Below the pieces are notes generated by a model. The model worked only from the letters and a program-made list of their open reading frames with translations. It did not search any database and had not been told where the DNA came from. Positions 15,525 to 63,586 of a DNA stretch of 64,000 nt are shown piece after piece (position 1 is the stretch's first letter; the number at the start of each line of letters is the position of its first letter). This stretch comes from a virus: positions 1-64,000 of IMG/VR virus record IMGVR_UViG_3300047157_000105; one strand, 5' to 3'. The position numbers were made by a program, and so were the translations under genes.

Positions 15525-16166
15525 ATGGGGTTTAATAGATTTTTAGAAAGAACTATTGCAAAATCACAACAATGTAATAGAAATTGGGATCTATCTAAGC
15601 AAATCCCAGATGAGGATATTAAAACAATGGAGCAGTCTGTCAAGCATTGCTCGTCTAAACAAAATCGTGTATTTTATAAAGTTCTGTATACACAAGATCG
15701 TGATAAGATTGAAAGAATACATGATGCTACAGATGGTTTTACCTATGGTTTAGATATGGAAAAAGATAAAGATGGGAATTTTTTATCGACCACTAACCCT
15801 CAAGTACTAGCAAATACATTATTTATTTTCGCAAAAGATAGAGATGAGAAAATAGATTATGCTAGAATAGCTGAAGAGAAAAATCTTGGTATAGAAGAAG
15901 GCAAAGACAAAATGGATGAAGACCGTTCAATTGGAATTGCTGCAGGATATTTAACTCTCACTTCTAATCTTTTAGGATATGAATCAGGTTGTTGCCAATG
16001 CTTTAATGAGGCTGATGTTAAAGATATATTAGGTATAGATGAAGATGTATTTTTACTAATGGGTGTAGGTTATGGTGATAAGACAAGATTGAGAAAAGAA
16101 CATCATACAGATCCTAGCTTTACATTTCCTTCATTTAAGAAAGATATAAAAGTACAAAGAGTATAA
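15525..16166 (+). CDS. nitroreductase family protein
   Basis: QQCNRNWD..K.IP, SSKQN, IGIAAGYLTL..NLLGYESGCC, LLMGVGY. Confidence 0.75.
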   Translation: MGFNRFLERTIAKSQQCNRNWDLSKQIPDEDIKTMEQSVKHCSSKQNRVFYKVLYTQDRDKIERIHDATDGFTYGLDMEKDKDGNFLSTTNPQVLANTLFIFAKDRDEKIDYARIAEEKNLGIEEGKDKMDEDRSIGIAAGYLTLTSNLLGYESGCCQCFNEADVKDILGIDEDVFLLMGVGYGDKTRLRKEHHTDPSFTFPSFKKDIKVQRV

Positions 16167-18008
16167 TTAAGGGACTAAGTTATATATTTCTATAACATCT
16201 TCCTTACCTTTCACTCTAATATCACCTATCTTATGAGATCGTATAATCATATCATCTGGCAATTGAGTCATTGTCATGGAGGAATAAATTGTTGGATATT
16301 GTAAATAATCTCCCCTTCCTGCTGTTGCTTCTAGTCTTGCTGCTAGATTAACAGCATCACCTATTACACTAAAATCAAATCGTGTAGAGCTACCCATATT
16401 ACCGATAATAGCTGGTCCAGTATTTACACCTGTACCAACGTTAATATCAGGTAAGCCTCTATCCTTATATCTTTGTTTTAGTTCTAATGTCTTTGCTTCT
16501 ATTTCAACAGCGGACTTCACCGCCATCTCAGCATGATTAGGCATATCTAATGGTGCACCAAACACAGCCATAATACAATCACCCATAAACTTATCAACCA
16601 TACCACCATTATTCAATATAATATTTGTCATCTCATCTAAGAACTCATTCACTAATACAACTAAACCTTCTGGGTCATCTTTGTTTTTATAATATTCTGA
16701 GATAGGTGTGAATCCAATAATGTCCATAAACAAATAAGACATATCTTTTCTTTCACCACCAAGCTTAAGTAAGTCAGGATTTTTCTGCAGTGCTTTGACT
16801 TGACGTGGATCTAAGTAGTGTTCAAACTGTTTCTTAATCTGTTGCTTCTGTCTAAACTCTAATATGAACCTATTAAACGTGGCATGGAATCCTACAATAA
16901 AGAATGTTAATAATGCCCATGTAATATCTACAAGAACTAATTGTGTGCTAAACATATGTTGGAAGTAATATATACCTCCACCGAATATACCTAATAATGA
17001 TACACCTATTATCCAATAAGGTGTAAATCGTGTAATAAGTATGATTAATATACCTAATACGAATCCAGCCAGTATCTCTATGAGGCTATCATATCTCTTT
17101 ATTGTTTCTCCATCTAATATTGTTTGGAGAGTTTGTGCAGATATAACATAATCATATTGTTCACCCACAGGTGTTGCAACAACTCCGCCTAATCCCTCTG
17201 CTGTCATAGCAACAATGACTGTTGTACCCGCAAGTGGCGTGAAGTCTTCAGACGCAGCACTCATTGTTTTAAATTCTTTATTCCATCTTACCCATACACG
17301 AGCATTCGTATCTGTATTAATTGTAGCATAAGCTGGAACTCTCATAGCCACAATACCAGTCTCATCTGCTTTGACTTGATATGATGGGTCACCTACAGCA
17401 ACACGAATAGTTTCTATTGCCATATTCGGATATACTTCCTCACCTATCTTCATAAGCAATGGAACTCGTCTAACTACACCATCAATCTCAGGAGCTGTAT
17501 TAATAACACCAACACCATTCGCACACTCAGCAAGTTTAGGTAATGGTCCAACCATACCATTCCACTCAAATAGATATGGTAACGGATCACCTATCTTTGC
17601 CACACCTCTCGGCACTGGATTAGATGTTCTCTTTTGTGCTGTACCTGTTTGGGCAATGACTGTGCCATACGTTAGTGTTTCACAGAATACATCATCACTA
17701 CCAAACCTATCTTCCTCACTAAACAATATAGGCATAACAATAATACCTGTTTCTGCATTCCTTAATTGAAGTATGAGGTTAGCAAGTACATCACGATCCC
17801 ACGGCCATTGGCCATGTTCTTCGATTGCTGCTTCATCGATGGTAACTATTGTAACTGCTTCAGAAGGAGTCTTCTCTTCATTTTGCAATACATAGTCAAA
17901 TGATTTAAGTCTGAGTATCTCTTTGACCCATGGATCTTGCAGACCGATATAGGTTAATGCTATAAGGGTAACAAATGCGATAGACCAATGTGATAATATT
18001 TTCTTCAT
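16167..18008 (-). CDS. CHASE2-domain class III adenylate cyclase
   Basis: N-terminal TM; IDE..IEEHGQWPW.R and DGVVRRVPL (CHASE2); 3 TMs; FMDIIGFT, DKFMGDCIMAVFG, GVNTG, FSVIGDAVNLAARLE. Start MKKILS at 18008. Confidence 0.92.
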   Translation of the reverse strand: MKKILSHWSIAFVTLIALTYIGLQDPWVKEILRLKSFDYVLQNEEKTPSEAVTIVTIDEAAIEEHGQWPWDRDVLANLILQLRNAETGIIVMPILFSEEDRFGSDDVFCETLTYGTVIAQTGTAQKRTSNPVPRGVAKIGDPLPYLFEWNGMVGPLPKLAECANGVGVINTAPEIDGVVRRVPLLMKIGEEVYPNMAIETIRVAVGDPSYQVKADETGIVAMRVPAYATINTDTNARVWVRWNKEFKTMSAASEDFTPLAGTTVIVAMTAEGLGGVVATPVGEQYDYVISAQTLQTILDGETIKRYDSLIEILAGFVLGILIILITRFTPYWIIGVSLLGIFGGGIYYFQHMFSTQLVLVDITWALLTFFIVGFHATFNRFILEFRQKQQIKKQFEHYLDPRQVKALQKNPDLLKLGGERKDMSYLFMDIIGFTPISEYYKNKDDPEGLVVLVNEFLDEMTNIILNNGGMVDKFMGDCIMAVFGAPLDMPNHAEMAVKSAVEIEAKTLELKQRYKDRGLPDINVGTGVNTGPAIIGNMGSSTRFDFSVIGDAVNLAARLEATAGRGDYLQYPTIYSSMTMTQLPDDMIIRSHKIGDIRVKGKEDVIEIYNLVP

Positions 18009-18013
18009 AAACC

Positions 18014-18021
18014 TATTTATA
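18014..18021 (-). promoter_or_regulatory. late promoter TATAAATA for the cyclase gene
   Basis: TATTTATA on + strand; minus strand reads TATAAATA-GGTTT-ATG. Confidence 0.7.
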
Positions 18022-18866
18022 TTAATTCTTGCGTGACTTGAACTGAGCAACCACTAGGATGTAGTGCATGTATTTGTTAAACTATATGATTGCGCTGTGC
18101 TATTATACTGTAATAAATCTAAATCTGTTGTATAAGCTACCAGTTAAATCTATTGTTGCGGTATGGTAGCATCTCCTTCTTTGCATAATGATTCTTCTCC
18201 ATTATCAGTTATATACTATAAGTTATATGATTTATCTTGCCATTGCCTTCTTGTTTAAAGAATATATCATTATTATCACCACCATAATGTATAAATTTTG
18301 CCTCATGGTCTGCATTACCTGTACCAGTTTCTTGTGACCGCCTTTAAATTTGTGTCACCACTATGAAGATCTAATTGACAGTGTGCCCACCATATTCTGC
18401 TGTAGCATAGAATCACATGTTGTATGAAGTTCGCATCAGCGTCAAATGTTTTACCTTGGCAAAAATGAACAGTATTATCATTAGTATTAATATGAAATCC
18501 TATTCGATTAGCATCTGATCCTGTAGTATTACAATATTGCTTCGATACTTTAAAGTATTACCTGAACCATCTAAGTCACCACCCCAAGATTGCCAGAACC
18601 CCAATGCCGTAGTATAACCCACACTAATGCATCTTCATTTCCCTCTTGGTCAATTGTAACTGTATTATCATCATGTGCTACCTTAGAAATTGTACTACAT
18701 TATCATCACCATCTTGGGTTATATCTATTGTTAGGTTATCGCTCGTACCAACTTGTGTAATGTATATTTCGTTATTGGCAAACACAGAACCAGCCATAAA
18801 AATTATTGGAATATATAATATTATTAATACTAATATGCTACTGACTTTGAATAATAGTGATTTCAC
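18017..18866 (-). pseudogene. curlin-repeat secreted protein, multiply frameshifted in this sequence (likely read errors)
   Basis: Signal peptide then NEIYITQVG..N..IDITQDGDDN; out-of-frame fragments DDNTVTIDQEGN, DLDGSGNTL, NDIFFKQEGNG, GCSVQVTQ. Confidence 0.65.
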
Positions 18867-19937
18867 TTTCTATTCCTCCTAATTCAAAATCTATTAACTC
18901 GAAATCCCCTTGTTGTATATTCATCATATAACTATTTTCTTGTTCAAGTCTTAATTCAACCACACTACCACTTGCAGCTTCTCTATGCCAATACCATTGT
19001 GGGTCTTCATCTAATATGGTAATGCCTGTGTCTTTATCTTTACCTAATGTAAAATCGTATGAACCTTTTTTCTTATCAAATTCAGAACGCATTTGTAATG
19101 CTAATTGACGATATTCAGTTGTTCTAGAATATCTGCTAAGAAATTCTGATCTAAGAAATCTGTATCAAGCATTGATACATACTCATCTTCTTCTATTTCT
19201 AAATAGTCTATTTCTAATTCTTCAAACTTTAGAAAGTCTATGTCAAGAGCAGTAGCAACTTTATTTAATTCTTCATTCTGCATTGCCTCTTCGATCTCGC
19301 GAGGTTTAGATATAATAAGTAAGTTATTAATGAATGCTTCTTCTAGATCTACAATCACAGGTTTTAATGGCCTCGAAGAAATAGTGTCCACAACGGTAGC
19401 CTGGAAGGCCTGATTCATAATAACCATGCCCGCATCGGATTCAACTGATATCTCACCTACAAAGCAGTTACCATTTGTATCACATGACGGCAGTAGAATA
19501 ATAGTAGAACTACCTACCTCGTCTATCGTCATTGAAAAATCTGTACCTCGAACACCGATAGTAGCTGTTGGTGTTTTTATTTGTACTGCAGTTGGGGTGG
19601 TCTTTGCAATCTGACCTGAAGCATATCTTACTGTACCAAGTGCTGCTTTTAGTGATAGCGACCCCTTCTTAGTATTTGGGTCATAAACAAATTCATCAAT
19701 AATAAGTTTGGAATGCTGTGTAACATCTACCCTCGTATCATCAATAAAGCCAATAGCGACTTTACCTTTACCAGTTTTAACAGTATCATACTGGAATATA
19801 TCTAAATCTTTTTCGGCATCAACATCTTCACCATCCGTTCTTTCAATATTGGCATTACCTTCATGTAAGATAACATCGCCAATTATACTAGCGAATGATG
19901 AAAATGTTAAACACCATAATATAACAAAAAGCCGCAC
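18838..19937 (-). CDS. FecR-domain periplasmic protein (frameshift near 19110)
   Basis: Signal peptide; D.VKTG.G...I.F.DDT, G.VRYASG, IKTPTATIGVRGTDF FecR motifs; 19101..19937 and 18838..19092 join across an indel. Confidence 0.8.
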
Positions 19938-19938
19938 A

Positions 19939-21048
19939 TTAATCCCTCTGGATTATATCTACATTAGCTGATGCACCATTAACTGTCATTGTAATAACAT
20001 CACCAGAACCACCAGTTTGTAAGATAACATAATCTGCAGATGCACCATCATGTGTTAATGATAATGTACTTGCGTTATCTTGGTCAATATCAGCTACAAA
20101 GGTTGCACCATCTACATCCATGTTGACTGTACCTGTGCTTGTTTGTTCTATACTGATATTAGCACTTGCTCCGTTTGCATCTAAGTTAATAGTACCTGTG
20201 CTTGTCTGGTCAATATCAAATGTACCACCAGCACCGTTTAAACCATCCGAAGTTTGTCCAAGAATAGTTCCATCAGTATTAAATGTTGCATGACCTGTCT
20301 GATTAATATTAACTGTCTTCACAGCGCTTGCCGTACTTCCAGTGGTTGTCATTGTTACTGTACCACCCGCTGTTTGAGTAATATCAATGTTTTGTGAATC
20401 ACCTGTTGTAGTTACAGTTGCTGAGTTATCATATACACCTGATTGAACAACATCAACATCAGCAGTGATACCAGTTTGAGTCATAATTAAAGTATGACCT
20501 GCAACATCTCCATTACCATCAATATCGATTAGATAGTTATTTGAATCACCATTAATTGTTAATCTTAATATTGCACTTGCACCATCGATAGTAGCTGCAA
20601 CAACAGTACTGTCCGTACCTGATGCACCAACAATATCAATATCGGCATTATCACCCGAAGTAGAACCACCAACATCAATGTCAATATCTTGTGAGTTACC
20701 CGTAAAAGTAATTACAGCATTGACATCATCACAACCACTTGTGCTATCTGCTGGGTCACAATTGAAATCAATATTGTTACTATTACCTGTAGTACTCCAT
20801 GTACCAACAAAGTTATCACCGTTTATATCAAAGGTGATTATATTACTATTACCAACCTGGTCAATATTAAAGTTTGTTGCAGAGCCAGACACGGTGGATG
20901 CTGTAGTTGAATTACCTACCATATTACCATCACCATCCTGGAGTACATCAAAAACTAATGAAGCACCAGCCTGTGTTACATAAATCTTATTTGTTGCCAT
21001 TGCTGGCAAACTCATCAAAGCCATAATAAAGAATGTCAGTAATTTCAT
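19939..21048 (-). CDS. curlin-like repeat protein (CsgA/CsgB-like beta-solenoid)
   Basis: Signal peptide then NKIYVTQAG and many x-I-D/N-Q-x-G-x-x-N repeats; D/T/G/N-rich. Confidence 0.7.
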   Translation of the reverse strand: MKLLTFFIMALMSLPAMATNKIYVTQAGASLVFDVLQDGDGNMVGNSTTASTVSGSATNFNIDQVGNSNIITFDINGDNFVGTWSTTGNSNNIDFNCDPADSTSGCDDVNAVITFTGNSQDIDIDVGGSTSGDNADIDIVGASGTDSTVVAATIDGASAILRLTINGDSNNYLIDIDGNGDVAGHTLIMTQTGITADVDVVQSGVYDNSATVTTTGDSQNIDITQTAGGTVTMTTTGSTASAVKTVNINQTGHATFNTDGTILGQTSDGLNGAGGTFDIDQTSTGTINLDANGASANISIEQTSTGTVNMDVDGATFVADIDQDNASTLSLTHDGASADYVILQTGGSGDVITMTVNGASANVDIIQRD

Positions 21049-21051
21049 TAA

Positions 21052-21958
21052 CTACTCTCCTTCTTTTGCCTCAATTGGATGTTTCGCCCAATCATCAAGT
21101 GGTATATCAGAATATACAGCATCTTTGTCTACCCGTTCTGCTATAACGGGTTCTGCCCATTCCCATAAACCACACTCTCTTCCTTCATATAACATTTGCA
21201 ATACTGCAAATTCAATAGCTGTACGAATCGCATAATTCACCGGTTCGTTAGCTGCATTGCCAGATTCTATCTCCAATGCTCTTGTTCCTAAATCTAAAAA
21301 TCTAAATACATCTGCACCATTGCTGGTGCTTGCGATTGTTTTAGTAGACGACACAGTCAATAGGATTTCTCCTGTCTGAACTGAAACAAGTCTTAATGAA
21401 ACAGTTACTTGATCAGTTCTATATTGATCGTTAGCTCCTAAACCAAGGAACCTTGCTCCTGCTCCTCCACTTGTAGTGTTCGTATCATACCCTACAATTG
21501 CCACCTTCTAATATTAAGCCAGCAAATAACATAGGTGCCAAAGCATCTGTGCTTTGAGCACCATCATATAGTTCTCTTGTACTTCTAATTAATTGTCTTT
21601 CTTTGACTAAGTTATCTAAACTTGCCCTTTCAACAACTGAGAACCAATCACCTTCACCAACTGCCATGAGTGATTGTATAACCCATACATCAGCTCCCTG
21701 AGAAACTGCTGTCGATAATCCTACCTGCTTTCTCTGTCCTGTCTCATCAGGGAAAGCATATACTGCCACGGTAATTTTTACTGGATTTCCATTTCCATCC
21801 GTGGGTGTATTTATCAAATCTGGCATATCTTTTAGCAATTCTTTTGTAGGTGTGCCCTGAACAAAAGGCATTTCTCCTTCTATTGCTTTGGTGTTCTGTA
21901 CCGAACAACCAGCCATAATACAACTTAAAAATGCTATCGCCAAATATTCCATATTCAT
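21052..21958 (-). CDS. csgG: curli secretion channel CsgG (single-base frameshift near 21497)
   Basis: MAG-C lipobox; VAVYAFPDETGQRK, STAVSQGA, WFSVVER..LDNL.KERQLIRS, EGG|IVGYDTN..SGG.GARFLG.G...YR.DQVTVSLRLVSV.TGEIL. Confidence 0.92.
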
Positions 21959-21962
21959 AATT

Positions 21963-22448
21963 TTAAAATTTAAAGTCTCCAACTGGTACAACTAATTCTG
22001 TTAATGAACCATCAGCTGCTGTAACAGTTAACGTAATTGTTTCTGCTGTCTCGTCTTTTACCCATGCCACTGTTGAGCCATCAGGTAAAGTTGCTGTACC
22101 ACTTAATGGGCACTCTAATTCTGTCGTATCTAAATCTTCGGTGCAATTAGTACCGAACATATTATCAACCATTTGTTTGGATAAGTTTGCGAATATACGA
22201 CTTTCTACGTTCGTTACAAACTTTGCAAGGGTGGTATTCTTAGCATCTCTCTCAGCTTTAGCAGCTGCAGATAATAAGTCATCCTTTACAGATTCTTTTC
22301 TATTGTATTCTAGCTGAGATATTGAAAGTACATGACTAGAATATCCTTCTCCACTAAAAGCCGGATTACTAAAATCAAACGTTAAATTACTCGCTTGACT
22401 TATTGTCGTCAGTGTTAGTAGTGTCAGTAAAAGTTTTAATTTCACCAT
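21963..22448 (-). CDS. csgF: curli assembly component CsgF
   Basis: Signal peptide then LTFDFSNPAFSG (NPxFxG motif); C-terminal ITLTVTAADGSLTELVVP. Confidence 0.85.
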   Translation of the reverse strand: MVKLKLLLTLLTLTTISQASNLTFDFSNPAFSGEGYSSHVLSISQLEYNRKESVKDDLLSAAAKAERDAKNTTLAKFVTNVESRIFANLSKQMVDNMFGTNCTEDLDTTELECPLSGTATLPDGSTVAWVKDETAETITLTVTAADGSLTELVVPVGDFKF

Positions 22449-22704
22449 GTCTTTCTCTCTCCTGTAATATCATATCTAATTTAGCGTTTAATCTAATTAA
22501 ATCATTATCCAACATTCTTACTCTATCGATTAATGCAATTAAAGTCATATGGCTATCGCCTATAACTGGATCTACCTTTGTAGAAACCCATGTCCATATG
22601 AAGTATATAAAGTAACCCATTGCCAAAGCGGCAATAATAGGAAAACCGTAATCACTAACTAATTGTCCTATCGTTGTTTGTTGCTCTACTACTACTTCTT
22701 CCAT
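22387..22704 (-). CDS. single-TM coiled-coil membrane protein (YvrJ/BhlA-like)
   Basis: LVSDYGFPII..AMGYFIYFIW then heptad region. Confidence 0.55.
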   Translation of the reverse strand: MEEVVVEQQTTIGQLVSDYGFPIIAALAMGYFIYFIWTWVSTKVDPVIGDSHMTLIALIDRVRMLDNDLIRLNAKLDMILQERERHGEIKTFTDTTNTDDNKSSE

Positions 22705-22985
22705 TAGTCTCTCCTCGCATCAGTCTTACCGTCTGCTCTTGCGATTCGATCCGTATCAGGTCTTATACCAAATGCCTGACACATCTTTACATCAATACGT
22801 ATTAATTCACTATTCATAGTCTTTACTCTATTGTCTAATGCTTGTGCAAACATTCTTTGTTGCTTAATGTCTGATTCAACTCCTTCTAATATAAAACTTA
22901 ACGTTAAATATACGAAATAACCTGCTGCTCCTGCACCTACAATAGGAAACCCTACCTCAGTTACTAAATCTAATATGCCTTCCAA
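22704..22985 (-). CDS. single-TM coiled-coil membrane protein, paralog of neighbour
   Basis: AGGAGAG RBS, TTG start; LVTEVGFPIVG..AAGYFVYL. Confidence 0.55.
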   Translation of the reverse strand: MEGILDLVTEVGFPIVGAGAAGYFVYLTLSFILEGVESDIKQQRMFAQALDNRVKTMNSELIRIDVKMCQAFGIRPDTDRIARADGKTDARRD

Positions 22986-23012
22986 ATCACTCTCCTAATC
23001 TATTCATTACTA

Positions 23013-23334
<322 letters not shown>

Positions 23335-61073: not shown

Positions 61074-63586
61074 ATGAATCAAAACTTTTATACGTCAGCC
61101 TTTCGGCATGGAAAGGTCATTAAATATTTGGGCTATGAGAATGGTGAGAAAGTAAAGTTCACTGTTCCGTATCGCCCGACTCTATTTGTCACAAGCAAAC
61201 AAAACAATGCACATGATTGGCATTCCCTAGATGGTAAACCAGTAGAACCTATTCAGTTCGGTTCTATGGGAGAAGCCACTGACTTTATTAAGTCTTATGC
61301 AGATGTTCCTGGCTTTGATGTCTATGGCAATACCAACTATGTTGTTCAGTATCTTAATGAAGAGTTCCCTGGTGTAATCAAATGGGATCGTAACACAATC
61401 AATGTTACCTCTATCGATATCGAAACAAAGTTCGGTGATGGTTTCCCTGAGCCTAAAGATGCTGACCAGGAAGTGACAGCAATCACAATGAAGAATAACA
61501 TCGATGATACCTATTACACATTTGGTTGTGGTGAGTATGATGTAGAGAATTCTCTTATGCAAACACATTCGGTCGTTTATGTCAAGTGTGCTGACGAGAG
61601 AGAACTCTTACACAAATTTGTTTATCATTGGTCTAAGACTTCCCCTGATATTGTTACAGGTTGGAACTGTGAGTTCTTTGATATACCATATCTAGTAAAC
61701 CGTATTAGACGCATCTTTGATAATGGTCGTGAGAAGTTCCTATCTCCATGGCGAATGATTGATGAGCGTGAGACACATACTGGTTATGGTCAATCCACAC
61801 TTAAATACGAAATCAAAGGTGTAGCCATCTTAGATTACATGGCAATATTCAAGAAGTTCGGTTATTCGTATGGTCCACAAGAATCATATAAGTTAGATCA
61901 TATTGCAAATATTGTTCTCGGTGAGAAGAAGCTTGACTTCGGTGAAGCATCTGACCTTAATGAATTGCATGCAAATGACTATCAAAAGTTTATTGACTAT
62001 AACATCAAAGACGTAGAACTCATCGACCGTATGGAAGACAAGCTCGGTCTTATTAGTCTATGTCTTACCATGGCTTATAAAGGTGGTGTAAACTATGAGC
62101 AAGTGCTTGGCACTGTGGCTATATGGGATTCACTGATCTATCGTGACTTACATGCTAAGCGTATAGCTGTACCACAAAACGAAGAGTCATTTAAAGGTGC
62201 ATATCCTGGCGGTTATGTAAAAGAACCACATGTTGGTATGCATGATTGGGTATGTTCATTTGACTTAGCTTCTCTATATCCGTCAATCATTATGCAATAC
62301 AATATGTCTCCAGAGACTATCCTACTTGATGATGAGCCTGGTGTGAATGTAGAATCAGTCTTAGCTGGTCATATAAAGAATAATACACCAAACACGGCAT
62401 TAGCTGTAAACGGTGTTCGTTTCGATACAAAGAAGCTCGGTATTATTCCAGCCATTATCCAAGAGATCTATAATGATCGTCAAACATTTAAACAAGCACA
62501 ACTCAAAGCTGAGCAAGAGCTCGAGCTATGTGGTGTAAAGTCAGAGGTCTATGCCTTAGAGAAACGTATTGCTATTGCCAAGAACCAACAAATGGCATTA
62601 AAGATCCTACTCAACTCTTTGTATGGTGCAATGGGTAATAAGTGGTTTAGATATTTCGACATGCGTATTGCCGAAGGTATCACACTTACTGGTCAAGCAA
62701 CCATTCGTTGGGCAGAGAATAACTTGAATGATTACCTTAACAAAACCTTACAAACTAAAAAAGATTATGTAGTTGCTATTGATACCGACTCTGTCTATGT
62801 TTGTCTTGACGAGTTTGTTAAACGTCTTGGTCCAGCCAAGCCGGTAGACTTCCTTGACCAAGTATGTTCAGGTGCATTAGAAGGTGCACTCACTGAATGC
62901 TATGATCGTTTATTTAAAACACTAGGCGGTATAGAAAACAAAATGGTTATGGAACGTGAGGTAATTGCTGATCGTGGCATATGGACTGCCAAGAAGAGAT
63001 ACATACTCAATGTGCATGACAATGAAGGTGTTCGTTATGCTCAACCTAAATTAAAGATTATGGGTATCGAGGCAATCAAATCATCTACACCAGCTATATG
63101 TAGACAAGCCCTCAAAGATATCTTTCGCAGGATCATTGAGACTGATCAGGCAACCGTACAATCAGACATAGCAAACTTTAAAGCAGCATTTAAACAAGCG
63201 TCTGCCGAAGAGGTAAGCTTTCCTCGTGGTGTAAACAATCTAAATAAATGGACCGATAGGGAAAACATTTACAAGAAGGGAACACCTATTCATATTCGTG
63301 GTGCAATACTACACAATAATCTTATTACAAAACAAAATTAGGTAGAAGTATTCAGAAGATAACTAGTGGTGACAAGGTCAAGTTTACATATCTTGTCAAG
63401 CCGAATCCAATCAAAGAGAATGTGATTGCATTTGTAGATTATCTCCCACGTCAATTTAAACTTGAGAAATATATAGATTATAACCTACAGTTCGAGAAGA
63501 CATTCTTGGGTGCAATCGAACCGGTATTAGAAGCAGTTGGATGGACCAGTGAGCATGAAGTATCATTGGAAGATTTTTTTGTTTAA
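61074..63586 (+). CDS. gp43: family B DNA polymerase (one missing A near 63335)
   Basis: DIET, GWN..FFD, SFDLASLYPSII, KILLNSLYG, DTDS, KKRY; C-terminus (SGDKVKF.YL..PNP...SLEDFF) continues in a shifted frame to 63586. Confidence 0.96.

Follow-up and report, generated by a model that had tools for sequence, protein, structure and literature searches.

The stretch of DNA analysed here, referred to below as the window, comprises the first 64 kb of a linear 140.5-kb IMG/VR record (IMGVR_UViG_3300047157_000105), a marine myophage contig estimated to be 78% complete. From position 22985 down to position 16167 it carries eight tightly coupled genes on the minus strand, which in 5' to 3' order encode small membrane protein 1, its paralog small membrane protein 2, CsgF, CsgG, a first curlin, a FecR-fold protein, a second curlin, and a CHASE2 adenylate cyclase (Table 1). 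No other run of coding sequence in the window lies on the minus strand, nearly all long open reading frames (ORFs) outside the block being on the plus strand, and the sign of the GC skew switches exactly at the block. A first-pass annotation, made from the sequence alone, had proposed both this gene content and order and an orientation opposite to the other genes of the window; the former was confirmed by Pfam, by phrog_18771 and by the curlin fold, and the latter by the coding run and the skew. GenBank annotates these eight genes, in this order, for Pelagibacter phage HTVC008M (gp011-gp019) and Methylophilales phage Melnitz (gp97-gp104). Relative to that type VIII secretion system (T8SS) module, the block described here is inverted with respect to its neighbours, has indels in three genes, and encodes a longer curlin 1 (369 aa versus 228). 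The block is a copy of the pelagiphage T8SS module, and we consider it rather probable that it serves as a set of eight late-expressed genes changing the envelope of the infected cell.

Table 1. Positions of the genes of the block and of the motif preceding it, in window coordinates
Feature	Coordinates	Strand	Basis
Late-promoter-like motif TATAAATA (T4-type)	23013..23020	-	Read directly; ~27 nt upstream of small gene 1
Small membrane protein 1, 93 aa	22704..22985	-	phrog_18771 1.8e-29
Small membrane protein 2, 105 aa	22387..22704	-	phrog_18771 1.4e-28
CsgF homolog, 161 aa, signal peptide	21963..22448	-	Pfam CsgF PF10614 4.9e-11
CsgG homolog, outer-membrane lipoprotein pore, extra base at 21501	21052..21958	-	Pfam CsgG PF03783, two pieces
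Curlin 1, 369 aa, secreted CsgA-type beta-solenoid	19939..21048	-	Predicted fold and profile match
Secreted FecR-fold protein, ~365 aa if read through, two extra bases at ~19109	18838..19937	-	Pfam FecR 1.7e-9
Curlin 2, paralog of curlin 1, at least four frames here, hypervariable	18054..18866	-	Curlin_rpt 7e-4; Melnitz gp103 fragments
Membrane adenylate cyclase, intact gene	16167..18008	-	Pfam CHASE2 3.2e-38 and Guanylate_cyc 2.7e-17

The Pfam bit-score cut-offs were 20.8 for CsgG (PF03783), 25.8 for CsgF (PF10614), 24 for FecR (PF04773), and 20.7 for Curlin_rpt. CsgG was recovered in two halves, at 21485-21991 and 21052-21507, the better of which scored 94.5 bits against PF03783 and the other 48.7, with E values of 7.4e-27 and 7.6e-13; the intact CsgG ortholog in the related locus L006 scored 160.3 bits, and the cysteine of the "GC" lipobox was nearly invariant in the ortholog alignment. 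CsgF matched the N-terminal part of its profile with 43.3 bits and was 59% identical to HTVC008M gp014. A search of the whole 140.5-kb contig for CsgE (PF10627) gave no match at E ≤0.1, in agreement with the absence of csgE noted in the first-pass annotation; CsgE is likewise absent from alphaproteobacterial-type curli systems (Wittmers et al. 2022; PMC9599517). Curlin 1 had no Pfam match and displayed a periodicity of ~22 residues. Its AlphaFold2 model, computed from a 28-ortholog alignment, was all-beta with a mean pLDDT (the per-residue model confidence) of 84.9, and when aligned with VIA it placed the CsgA of Pontibacter korlensis (8c50) first, with a Z score of 33.9 over 320 residues, the generic beta-helices reaching Z scores of at most 20. 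Note that Foldseek alone gave no significant match with this model, and that re-alignment with VIA was needed to separate CsgA from generic beta-helices. The sequence profile of curlin 1 also matched E. coli CsgA (8enq, 6e-4) and 8c50, and the predicted structure confirmed a CsgA-type fold for this protein. In curlin 2 there was a weak Curlin_rpt match within 18678-18869 (7e-4), and comparison of profiles of the intact proteins with hhalign (probability 99.6%) identified the two curlins as paralogs. They were the fastest-evolving and most length-variable members of the block (185-497 aa), as expected for exposed repeat proteins.

At the distal end of the block, the cyclase ORF extends over 16167-18050 (627 aa) and opens at a TTG at 18050, the likely start being the ATG at 18008. 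The protein consists of one transmembrane helix, a periplasmic CHASE2 domain, three transmembrane helices, and a class-III catalytic domain; CHASE2 (PF05226, 132.2 bits) occupies residues 30-338, flanked by hydrophobic segments, and the cyclase domain residues 436-620. The closest solved domains were adenylate cyclases, namely a phytochrome-cyclase fusion (6fht, 3.7e-32) and CyaB of P. aeruginosa (3r5g, 3.4e-29). Residues D443, K487, D491, S561, N568, and R572 were invariant in 18 orthologs; among these we take D443 and D491 to be the metal-binding residues, K487 the substrate residue, and N568 and R572 the transition-state residues, and all five line up with the matching motifs of CyaB (3r5g). 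S561 stands in the place of the Thr of the "DYT" motif, a class IIIb pattern. Identity of the cyclase was 67.5% to that of HTVC008M and 48.8% to that of Melnitz. With CsgG as an outer-membrane lipoprotein, predicted signal peptides on CsgF, both curlins and the FecR-fold protein, and a cyclase having a periplasmic CHASE2 domain and a cytoplasmic catalytic domain, the parts of the block span the envelope as had been suggested.

The FecR domain was detected in 19101-19937 (PF04773, 38.4 bits). In the model of the intact ortholog (L006:7127-8233) a signal-peptide-like helix (residues 2-12) was followed by a confident beta domain (20-200), an acidic linker that was helical and of low confidence, and a small C-terminal beta domain. 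Residues 49-208 of the model superposed on the cell-surface signalling domain of PupR (6ovk) with a Z score of 15.7 and a root mean square deviation of 2.5 over 134 residues, and the model matched 4m0n with a Z score of 14.3. Residues 17-112 matched the "cell surface anchoring domain" of a Marinomonas ice-binding adhesin (5ix9) with a profile E value of 2.6e-4 and a Z score of 11.4, at 27% identity over 74 residues. The anchoring domain probably holds the adhesin at its outer-membrane pore, and this homology hints that the FecR-fold protein docks at a pore. Neither the sequence nor the model contained a cytoplasmic anti-sigma domain, a membrane anchor, or an STN-type subdomain, the FecR fold beginning at about residue 20; since the first two of these are missing, the protein is not a strict FecR-type regulator. 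The C-terminal 78 aa (L006:8000-8233; window 18838-19070) ended in I-x-I-x-Q in 30/30 orthologs, with the Q invariant, and the C-terminal beta domain had six short strands at a spacing of ~11 residues, resembling curlin repeats. Its hhalign probabilities were 13.7% with curlin 2 (E 0.002), 0.2% with curlin 1, and 0.4% with the CsgG control, and with so weak an alignment its identity as a curlin repeat was not established. A complex prediction for the FecR-fold protein and the periplasmic CHASE2 domain, run without controls, gave a score of 0.00, which speaks neither for nor against binding.

Each of the two small proteins has one N-terminal transmembrane helix followed by a helical region, and protein 1 has in addition a conserved basic C-terminal tail. 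Protein 1 is homologous to HTVC008M gp011 and Melnitz gp97 and 29% identical to protein 2; both belong to phrog_18771, a phage family lacking an assigned function. Members of the family range from 75 to 113 aa, and the sole invariant column in 38 sequences was a Gly. None of the 38 matched a histidine-kinase family in Pfam at E ≤1, and there was no conserved His. The "histidine kinase" label given to these genes previously (PMC9599517) is therefore unsupported, on grounds of size, of the missing His and of the missing kinase-family match. The holin-like family YvrJ was matched weakly by 8/38 members (best E 0.024), whereas BhlA gave no match and a protein atlas search was also blank; we did not adopt a holin-like reading.

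Although megablast of the block against GenBank phages gave no match, and relatives were found by protein-level searches only, the block proved to be widespread. A scan of IMG/VR identified a relative of the cyclase in 304 viral contigs, from which 80 cyclase loci were fetched; the 33 that extended upstream of the cyclase by 5.6 kb or more were used to count linkage. Every one of them had CsgG and the FecR gene, including loci whose cyclase was no more than 40% identical. Conversely, starting from the best 80 csgG-carrying contigs, the cyclase was present in each of the 33 loci having at least 5.5 kb downstream of CsgG. The eight genes thus form one inherited unit. A cyclase not conserved next to the csg genes in related phages would have refuted the first-pass annotation, but the linkage was kept in both directions. 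The order curlin, FecR, curlin, cyclase is interleaved, and the two small membrane paralogs always travelled with the block. Only two types of rearrangement were seen: relocation of the small-gene pair to a position just after the cyclase in several loci (L040-L045 and L055 among them), and, in L038, inversion of the first seven genes relative to the cyclase.

In this record three of the eight genes (csgG, the FecR gene, and curlin 2) are interrupted. In csgG, the two tblastn segments matching the HTVC008M and Melnitz proteins abut at 21500/21501 in different frames. In the FecR gene, the tblastn segments lie in two frames with a junction near 19110-19158 and a frame change at about 19109; and in curlin 2, scattered tblastn fragments match Melnitz gp103 in three frames, the gene being split over at least four. 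We compared positions 16000-23100 with Logan contigs of four public runs, the DNA runs X1, X2, and X4 and one RNA run. Every covering contig in the three DNA runs, which are independent seawater or viral samples, had one letter fewer at 21501 and two fewer at 19109, and the two letters at 19109 were also missing in the RNA run. Loss of the extra base(s) at 21501 or at 19109 restores a single frame in the respective gene. Across 18029-18692, near-identical contigs differed from the window by ~10 small indels. The RNA run X15 had contigs over parts of the block; DNA may be present in such libraries, so these were not counted as transcription. When HTVC008M ORFs of at least 80 aa were compared with the whole 140.5-kb contig, 69 matched. 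This comparison showed that the DNA polymerase ORF at 61074-63341 continues in another frame at 63332-63580 (relative to HTVC008M gp121), and that a baseplate wedge gene at contig positions 105602-105917, outside the window, has two frame changes.

Because the near-identical contigs are intact and the same contig also breaks its DNA polymerase, we read the frame breaks as errors or private lesions of this record, which the module as such probably does not have. Most simply, the record would contain indel errors that cluster in the repetitive, hypervariable curlin 2, and the module itself would be intact in nature. Three genes out of frame would also be expected if in this phage the module were a decaying pseudogene cluster. 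We regard this as very improbable, given the intact frames in near-identical contigs of three DNA runs, the intact cyclase, CsgF, curlin 1, and small genes, and the breaks that the same record has in DNA polymerase and baseplate genes, which a viable phage could not tolerate. As a separate matter, the middle of curlin 2 (18135-18600) was replaced by 441 unrelated letters in two independent metagenomes, with both flanks matching, and within the population curlin 2 resembles a hypervariable, cassette-like region.

Upstream of the block, the exact late-promoter motif TATAAATA occurred within 100-120 nt of small gene 1 in 14/32 distinct related loci, and NATAAATA in 20/32. Ahead of the other genes of the module TATAAATA was found in 0 to 7 of ~30 loci, and ahead of the cyclase in 4/49; in the whole contig it occurred 36 times on the plus strand and 8 times on the minus strand. 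The 73-nt divergent intergenic region at 22986-23058 contains, besides the minus-strand motif listed in Table 1, plus-strand copies beginning at 23033 and 23048. It looks like a pair of back-to-back putative late promoters, one for the module and one for a ferredoxin-like gene at 23059-23334. A copy at 18014-18021 was discounted as a late promoter of the cyclase's own, being separated from the likely ATG by 5 nt and shared by only 4/49 relatives.

To look for the cyclase outside phages, we scanned one genome per prokaryotic species for its relatives and searched the flanks of 76 bacterial loci with profile hidden Markov models of the phage proteins. The bacterial relatives were 29-33% identical and came mostly from Alphaproteobacteria (Hyphomicrobiales, Methyloceanibacter), with others in Elusimicrobia and Omnitrophota; the few closer matches were on short contigs of metagenome-assembled genomes (MAGs) that resembled mis-binned phage DNA. 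A FecR ORF lay within 10 kb of the cyclase in ~22/76 loci and directly adjacent in ~14, and 10/10 of the FecR neighbours checked exceeded the Pfam cut-off. In contrast, CsgG, CsgF, curlins, and the small proteins were not found near the cyclase in any of the 76 loci. Since the FecR and CHASE2-cyclase pair recurs in bacteria without csgG alongside in the loci sampled, these results showed the block to be a union of two bacterially derived cassettes, a curli secretion set and a FecR/CHASE2-cyclase pair. In an alphaproteobacterial MAG, a CHASE2 cyclase homolog is followed 3 kb downstream by a gene (L092:15439-18027) for a protein in which a FecR domain precedes nine RTX calcium-binding repeats and a serralysin C-terminal domain, an unusual combination; and in two Elusimicrobia loci (L128:4728-9815 and L147:4841-9994), FecR-domain proteins of ~1,700 aa with no other Pfam domain were encoded directly upstream of CHASE2 cyclases.

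The pairing resembles several known systems. In Sinorhizobium meliloti, itself an alphaproteobacterium, CyaD1, CyaD2, and CyaK combine CHASE2 with a class-III cyclase and, as in the phage, a FecR-domain gene is adjacent: clr, cyaD1, smc02177, and smc02178 have the consecutive tags SMc02175-SMc02178, and SMc02177 has the FecR domain (PMC5498481). CyaD1 without its CHASE2 domain makes cyclic AMP (cAMP) constitutively, and SMc02177 is a downstream target rather than a component of the sensor (PMC5498481). Signalling in S. meliloti runs through the CRP-like Clr encoded alongside, whereas no protein binding cyclic nucleotide monophosphates (cNMPs) was found in the phage contig. In FecR(LysM) and CHASE2 histidine-kinase operons of Burkholderia and Pseudomonas a secreted FecR protein is likewise encoded directly upstream of a CHASE2 sensor (PMC5192318), but those operons signal through a histidine kinase and response regulator and their FecR protein has LysM, whereas the phage has a cyclase and a FecR-fold protein without LysM. 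With FecA-FecR-FecI and PupB-PupR the phage block has in common the periplasmic FecR-fold domain and the idea of an outer-membrane protein communicating with it, but it includes neither an extracytoplasmic function sigma factor nor a TonB-dependent transducer, and its FecR-fold protein is without anchor, anti-sigma, and STN parts. CsgG, CsgF, and CsgA-type subunits are common to the block and to bacterial curli systems, both that of E. coli (csgBAC/csgDEFG) and the alphaproteobacterial type without csgE, csgC, and csgD; unlike E. coli, the phage block has no CsgE, CsgC, or CsgD, and unlike any of these it has FecR and a cyclase attached, a combination not seen around the bacterial cyclase homologs sampled, and belongs to a lytic phage, the known hosts of which have no curli genes (PMC9004378, PMC9599517).

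In substance the module is already known. Zaragoza-Solas et al. (2020; PMC7029224) reported pelagimyophages with csgF and csgG and put forward "sibling capture," and Buchholz et al. (2022; PMC9004378), who took the module to be incomplete, suggested a pore for the timing of lysis; neither mentioned the cyclase or FecR. The first-pass annotation had taken the csgF/csgG pore to be what was known from marine myophages. That pore had indeed been reported, but the whole cluster, FecR and the cyclase included, was published as well, by Wittmers et al. (2022, mSystems; PMC9599517), as one or two "HK" (histidine kinase) genes, CsgF, CsgG, CsgA/B, FecR, a second CsgA/B, and an adenylate cyclase. These authors found it in podophages and myophages including HTVC008M and expressed in metatranscriptomes, and they reported an alphaproteobacterial origin and a transfer from myophages to podophages; CHASE2 and the anti-sigma architecture were not mentioned. 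Compared with their labels, the "HK" genes encode small membrane proteins, FecR is a secreted FecR-fold protein and not an iron regulator, and the sensor is CHASE2. The present analysis adds the CHASE2 identity and its bacterial pairing with FecR, the curlin fold, the finding that the kinase and iron-regulator labels are unsupported, and the diagnosis of the frame breaks.

We propose the following mechanism. A single late transcript would cover the block; the host Sec system would export the curlins and CsgF, CsgG would be inserted as a lipoprotein pore, and the curlins would then pass the phage CsgG-CsgF pore and polymerise to curli-like fibres on the surface of the infected cell. CHASE2 would hold the cyclase off, as in CyaD1 of S. 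meliloti, whose constitutive activity in the CHASE2-less form argues for such an off-switch, and cAMP would be made upon a change of periplasmic state. The FecR-fold protein, having no anti-sigma part, would act as a periplasmic adaptor. Several observations weigh against this interpretation. The Curlin_rpt matches of 19.9 and 18.9 bits were below the cut-off, and only one relative exceeded it (25.4 bits); the late-promoter motif was recognised solely by its agreement with the consensus; cells infected with Melnitz did not clump in the work of Buchholz et al. (PMC9004378); in podophage modules FecR is universal and the cyclase only "frequent" (PMC9599517), which implies that the cyclase is dispensable for FecR and the secretion genes; smc02177, the sole studied FecR-domain neighbour of a CHASE2 cyclase, is not needed for signal perception (PMC5498481); and a cNMP-binding protein was not found in the 140.5-kb contig. 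The least secure step of the mechanism is what the FecR-fold protein does. This protein is more probably tied to the secretion side, that is, to the pore or to curlin traffic, than a dedicated ligand of CHASE2, and whether it relays to CHASE2 at all seems doubtful to us: the dispensability of smc02177 for signal perception, the podophage modules in which FecR is not universally accompanied by a cyclase, and the failure to find a cAMP receiver in the contig all disfavour a dedicated relay.

Trans-envelope signalling by the block is something that we infer from its parts. In its full form, a surface fibre or the CsgG pore would act on the FecR-fold protein, which would act on CHASE2 and thereby on cAMP, so that the phage would build a sensor on the infected cell. 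In cell-surface signalling FecR-fold domains do dock on outer-membrane transducers, and one such complex yielded the PupR domain structure (6ovk) that our model matches; side-by-side FecR and CHASE2 genes are a recurring arrangement in bacteria, the genes of the block are interleaved and strictly co-inherited, and the FecR-fold protein shares N-terminal homology with the adhesin anchoring domain (5ix9). We nevertheless consider this relay unlikely in view of the S. meliloti result, of podophage modules that keep FecR without a cyclase, of the STN-type subdomain, membrane helix, and anti-sigma part that a true FecR has and the phage protein lacks, and of the missing cNMP-binding protein. Equally unlikely, in our estimation, is a device in which surface state or pore load sets cAMP and tunes the last phase of infection, the small proteins being further inner-membrane parts. 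If true, a trans-envelope sensor of this kind would be notable.

Two published proposals can be set beside the envelope-changing role that we prefer. For Buchholz et al. (2022), CsgG-CsgF would form a pinholin-like channel or gated pore for lysis timing or the passage of solutes, and no fibre would be made. The absence of the periplasmic gate CsgE from the contig would suit such a channel, as would the infected cultures without clumping (PMC9004378), the seemingly late expression, and the holin-like size of the small membrane proteins, with their weak YvrJ matches. We think it improbable, however, as two secreted CsgA-type solenoids are kept in every complete locus, whereas the curlins were treated as missing in PMC9004378; CsgF is retained although it is needed for surface nucleation and not for the pore; and CsgG, being in the outer membrane, cannot alone depolarise the inner membrane. 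In the model of Wittmers et al. (2022), an iron-responsive FecR, the cyclase, and the "histidine kinase" would control expression of the secretion genes, in line with the regulation of csgD by cAMP-CRP in enterobacteria (PMC9599517). The secreted FecR-fold protein has no cytoplasmic anti-sigma domain, which leaves the "iron regulator" label unsupported; the supposed kinases are proteins of 75-113 aa with neither a conserved His nor a kinase-family match; the whole block lies behind a late-promoter motif with its genes tightly coupled; and no cNMP-binding regulator was found in the contig. This model appears to us the most improbable of those considered. Under the reading that we favour, in which late-expressed genes change the envelope of the infected cell, the module would give its hosts a surface structure that they otherwise lack, as the known hosts encode no curli genes. 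Found in hundreds of viral contigs, the module is carried by abundant phages whose hosts are the most numerous marine bacteria, and it was present at all 65 GOV2.0 ocean stations surveyed (PMC9599517). If fibres and cAMP are indeed made, the aggregation, superinfection, or lysis timing of SAR11-type cells would be altered ocean-wide.

Among the loci collected were a few of separate interest. The cyclase ORF at L043:454-3444 reads through to 997 aa, compared with ~610 elsewhere, either by fusion to a downstream domain or by loss of a stop codon. Phage-type cyclases at 93%, 38%, and 36% identity were present on MAG contigs assigned to Rhodobacteraceae (L088), Synechococcus (L090), and Rickettsiales (L091), respectively; all three are probably phage contigs binned into bacterial MAGs. 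On the Rickettsiales contig the two small phage genes directly followed the cyclase, and the genome behind it contained cNMP-binding genes.

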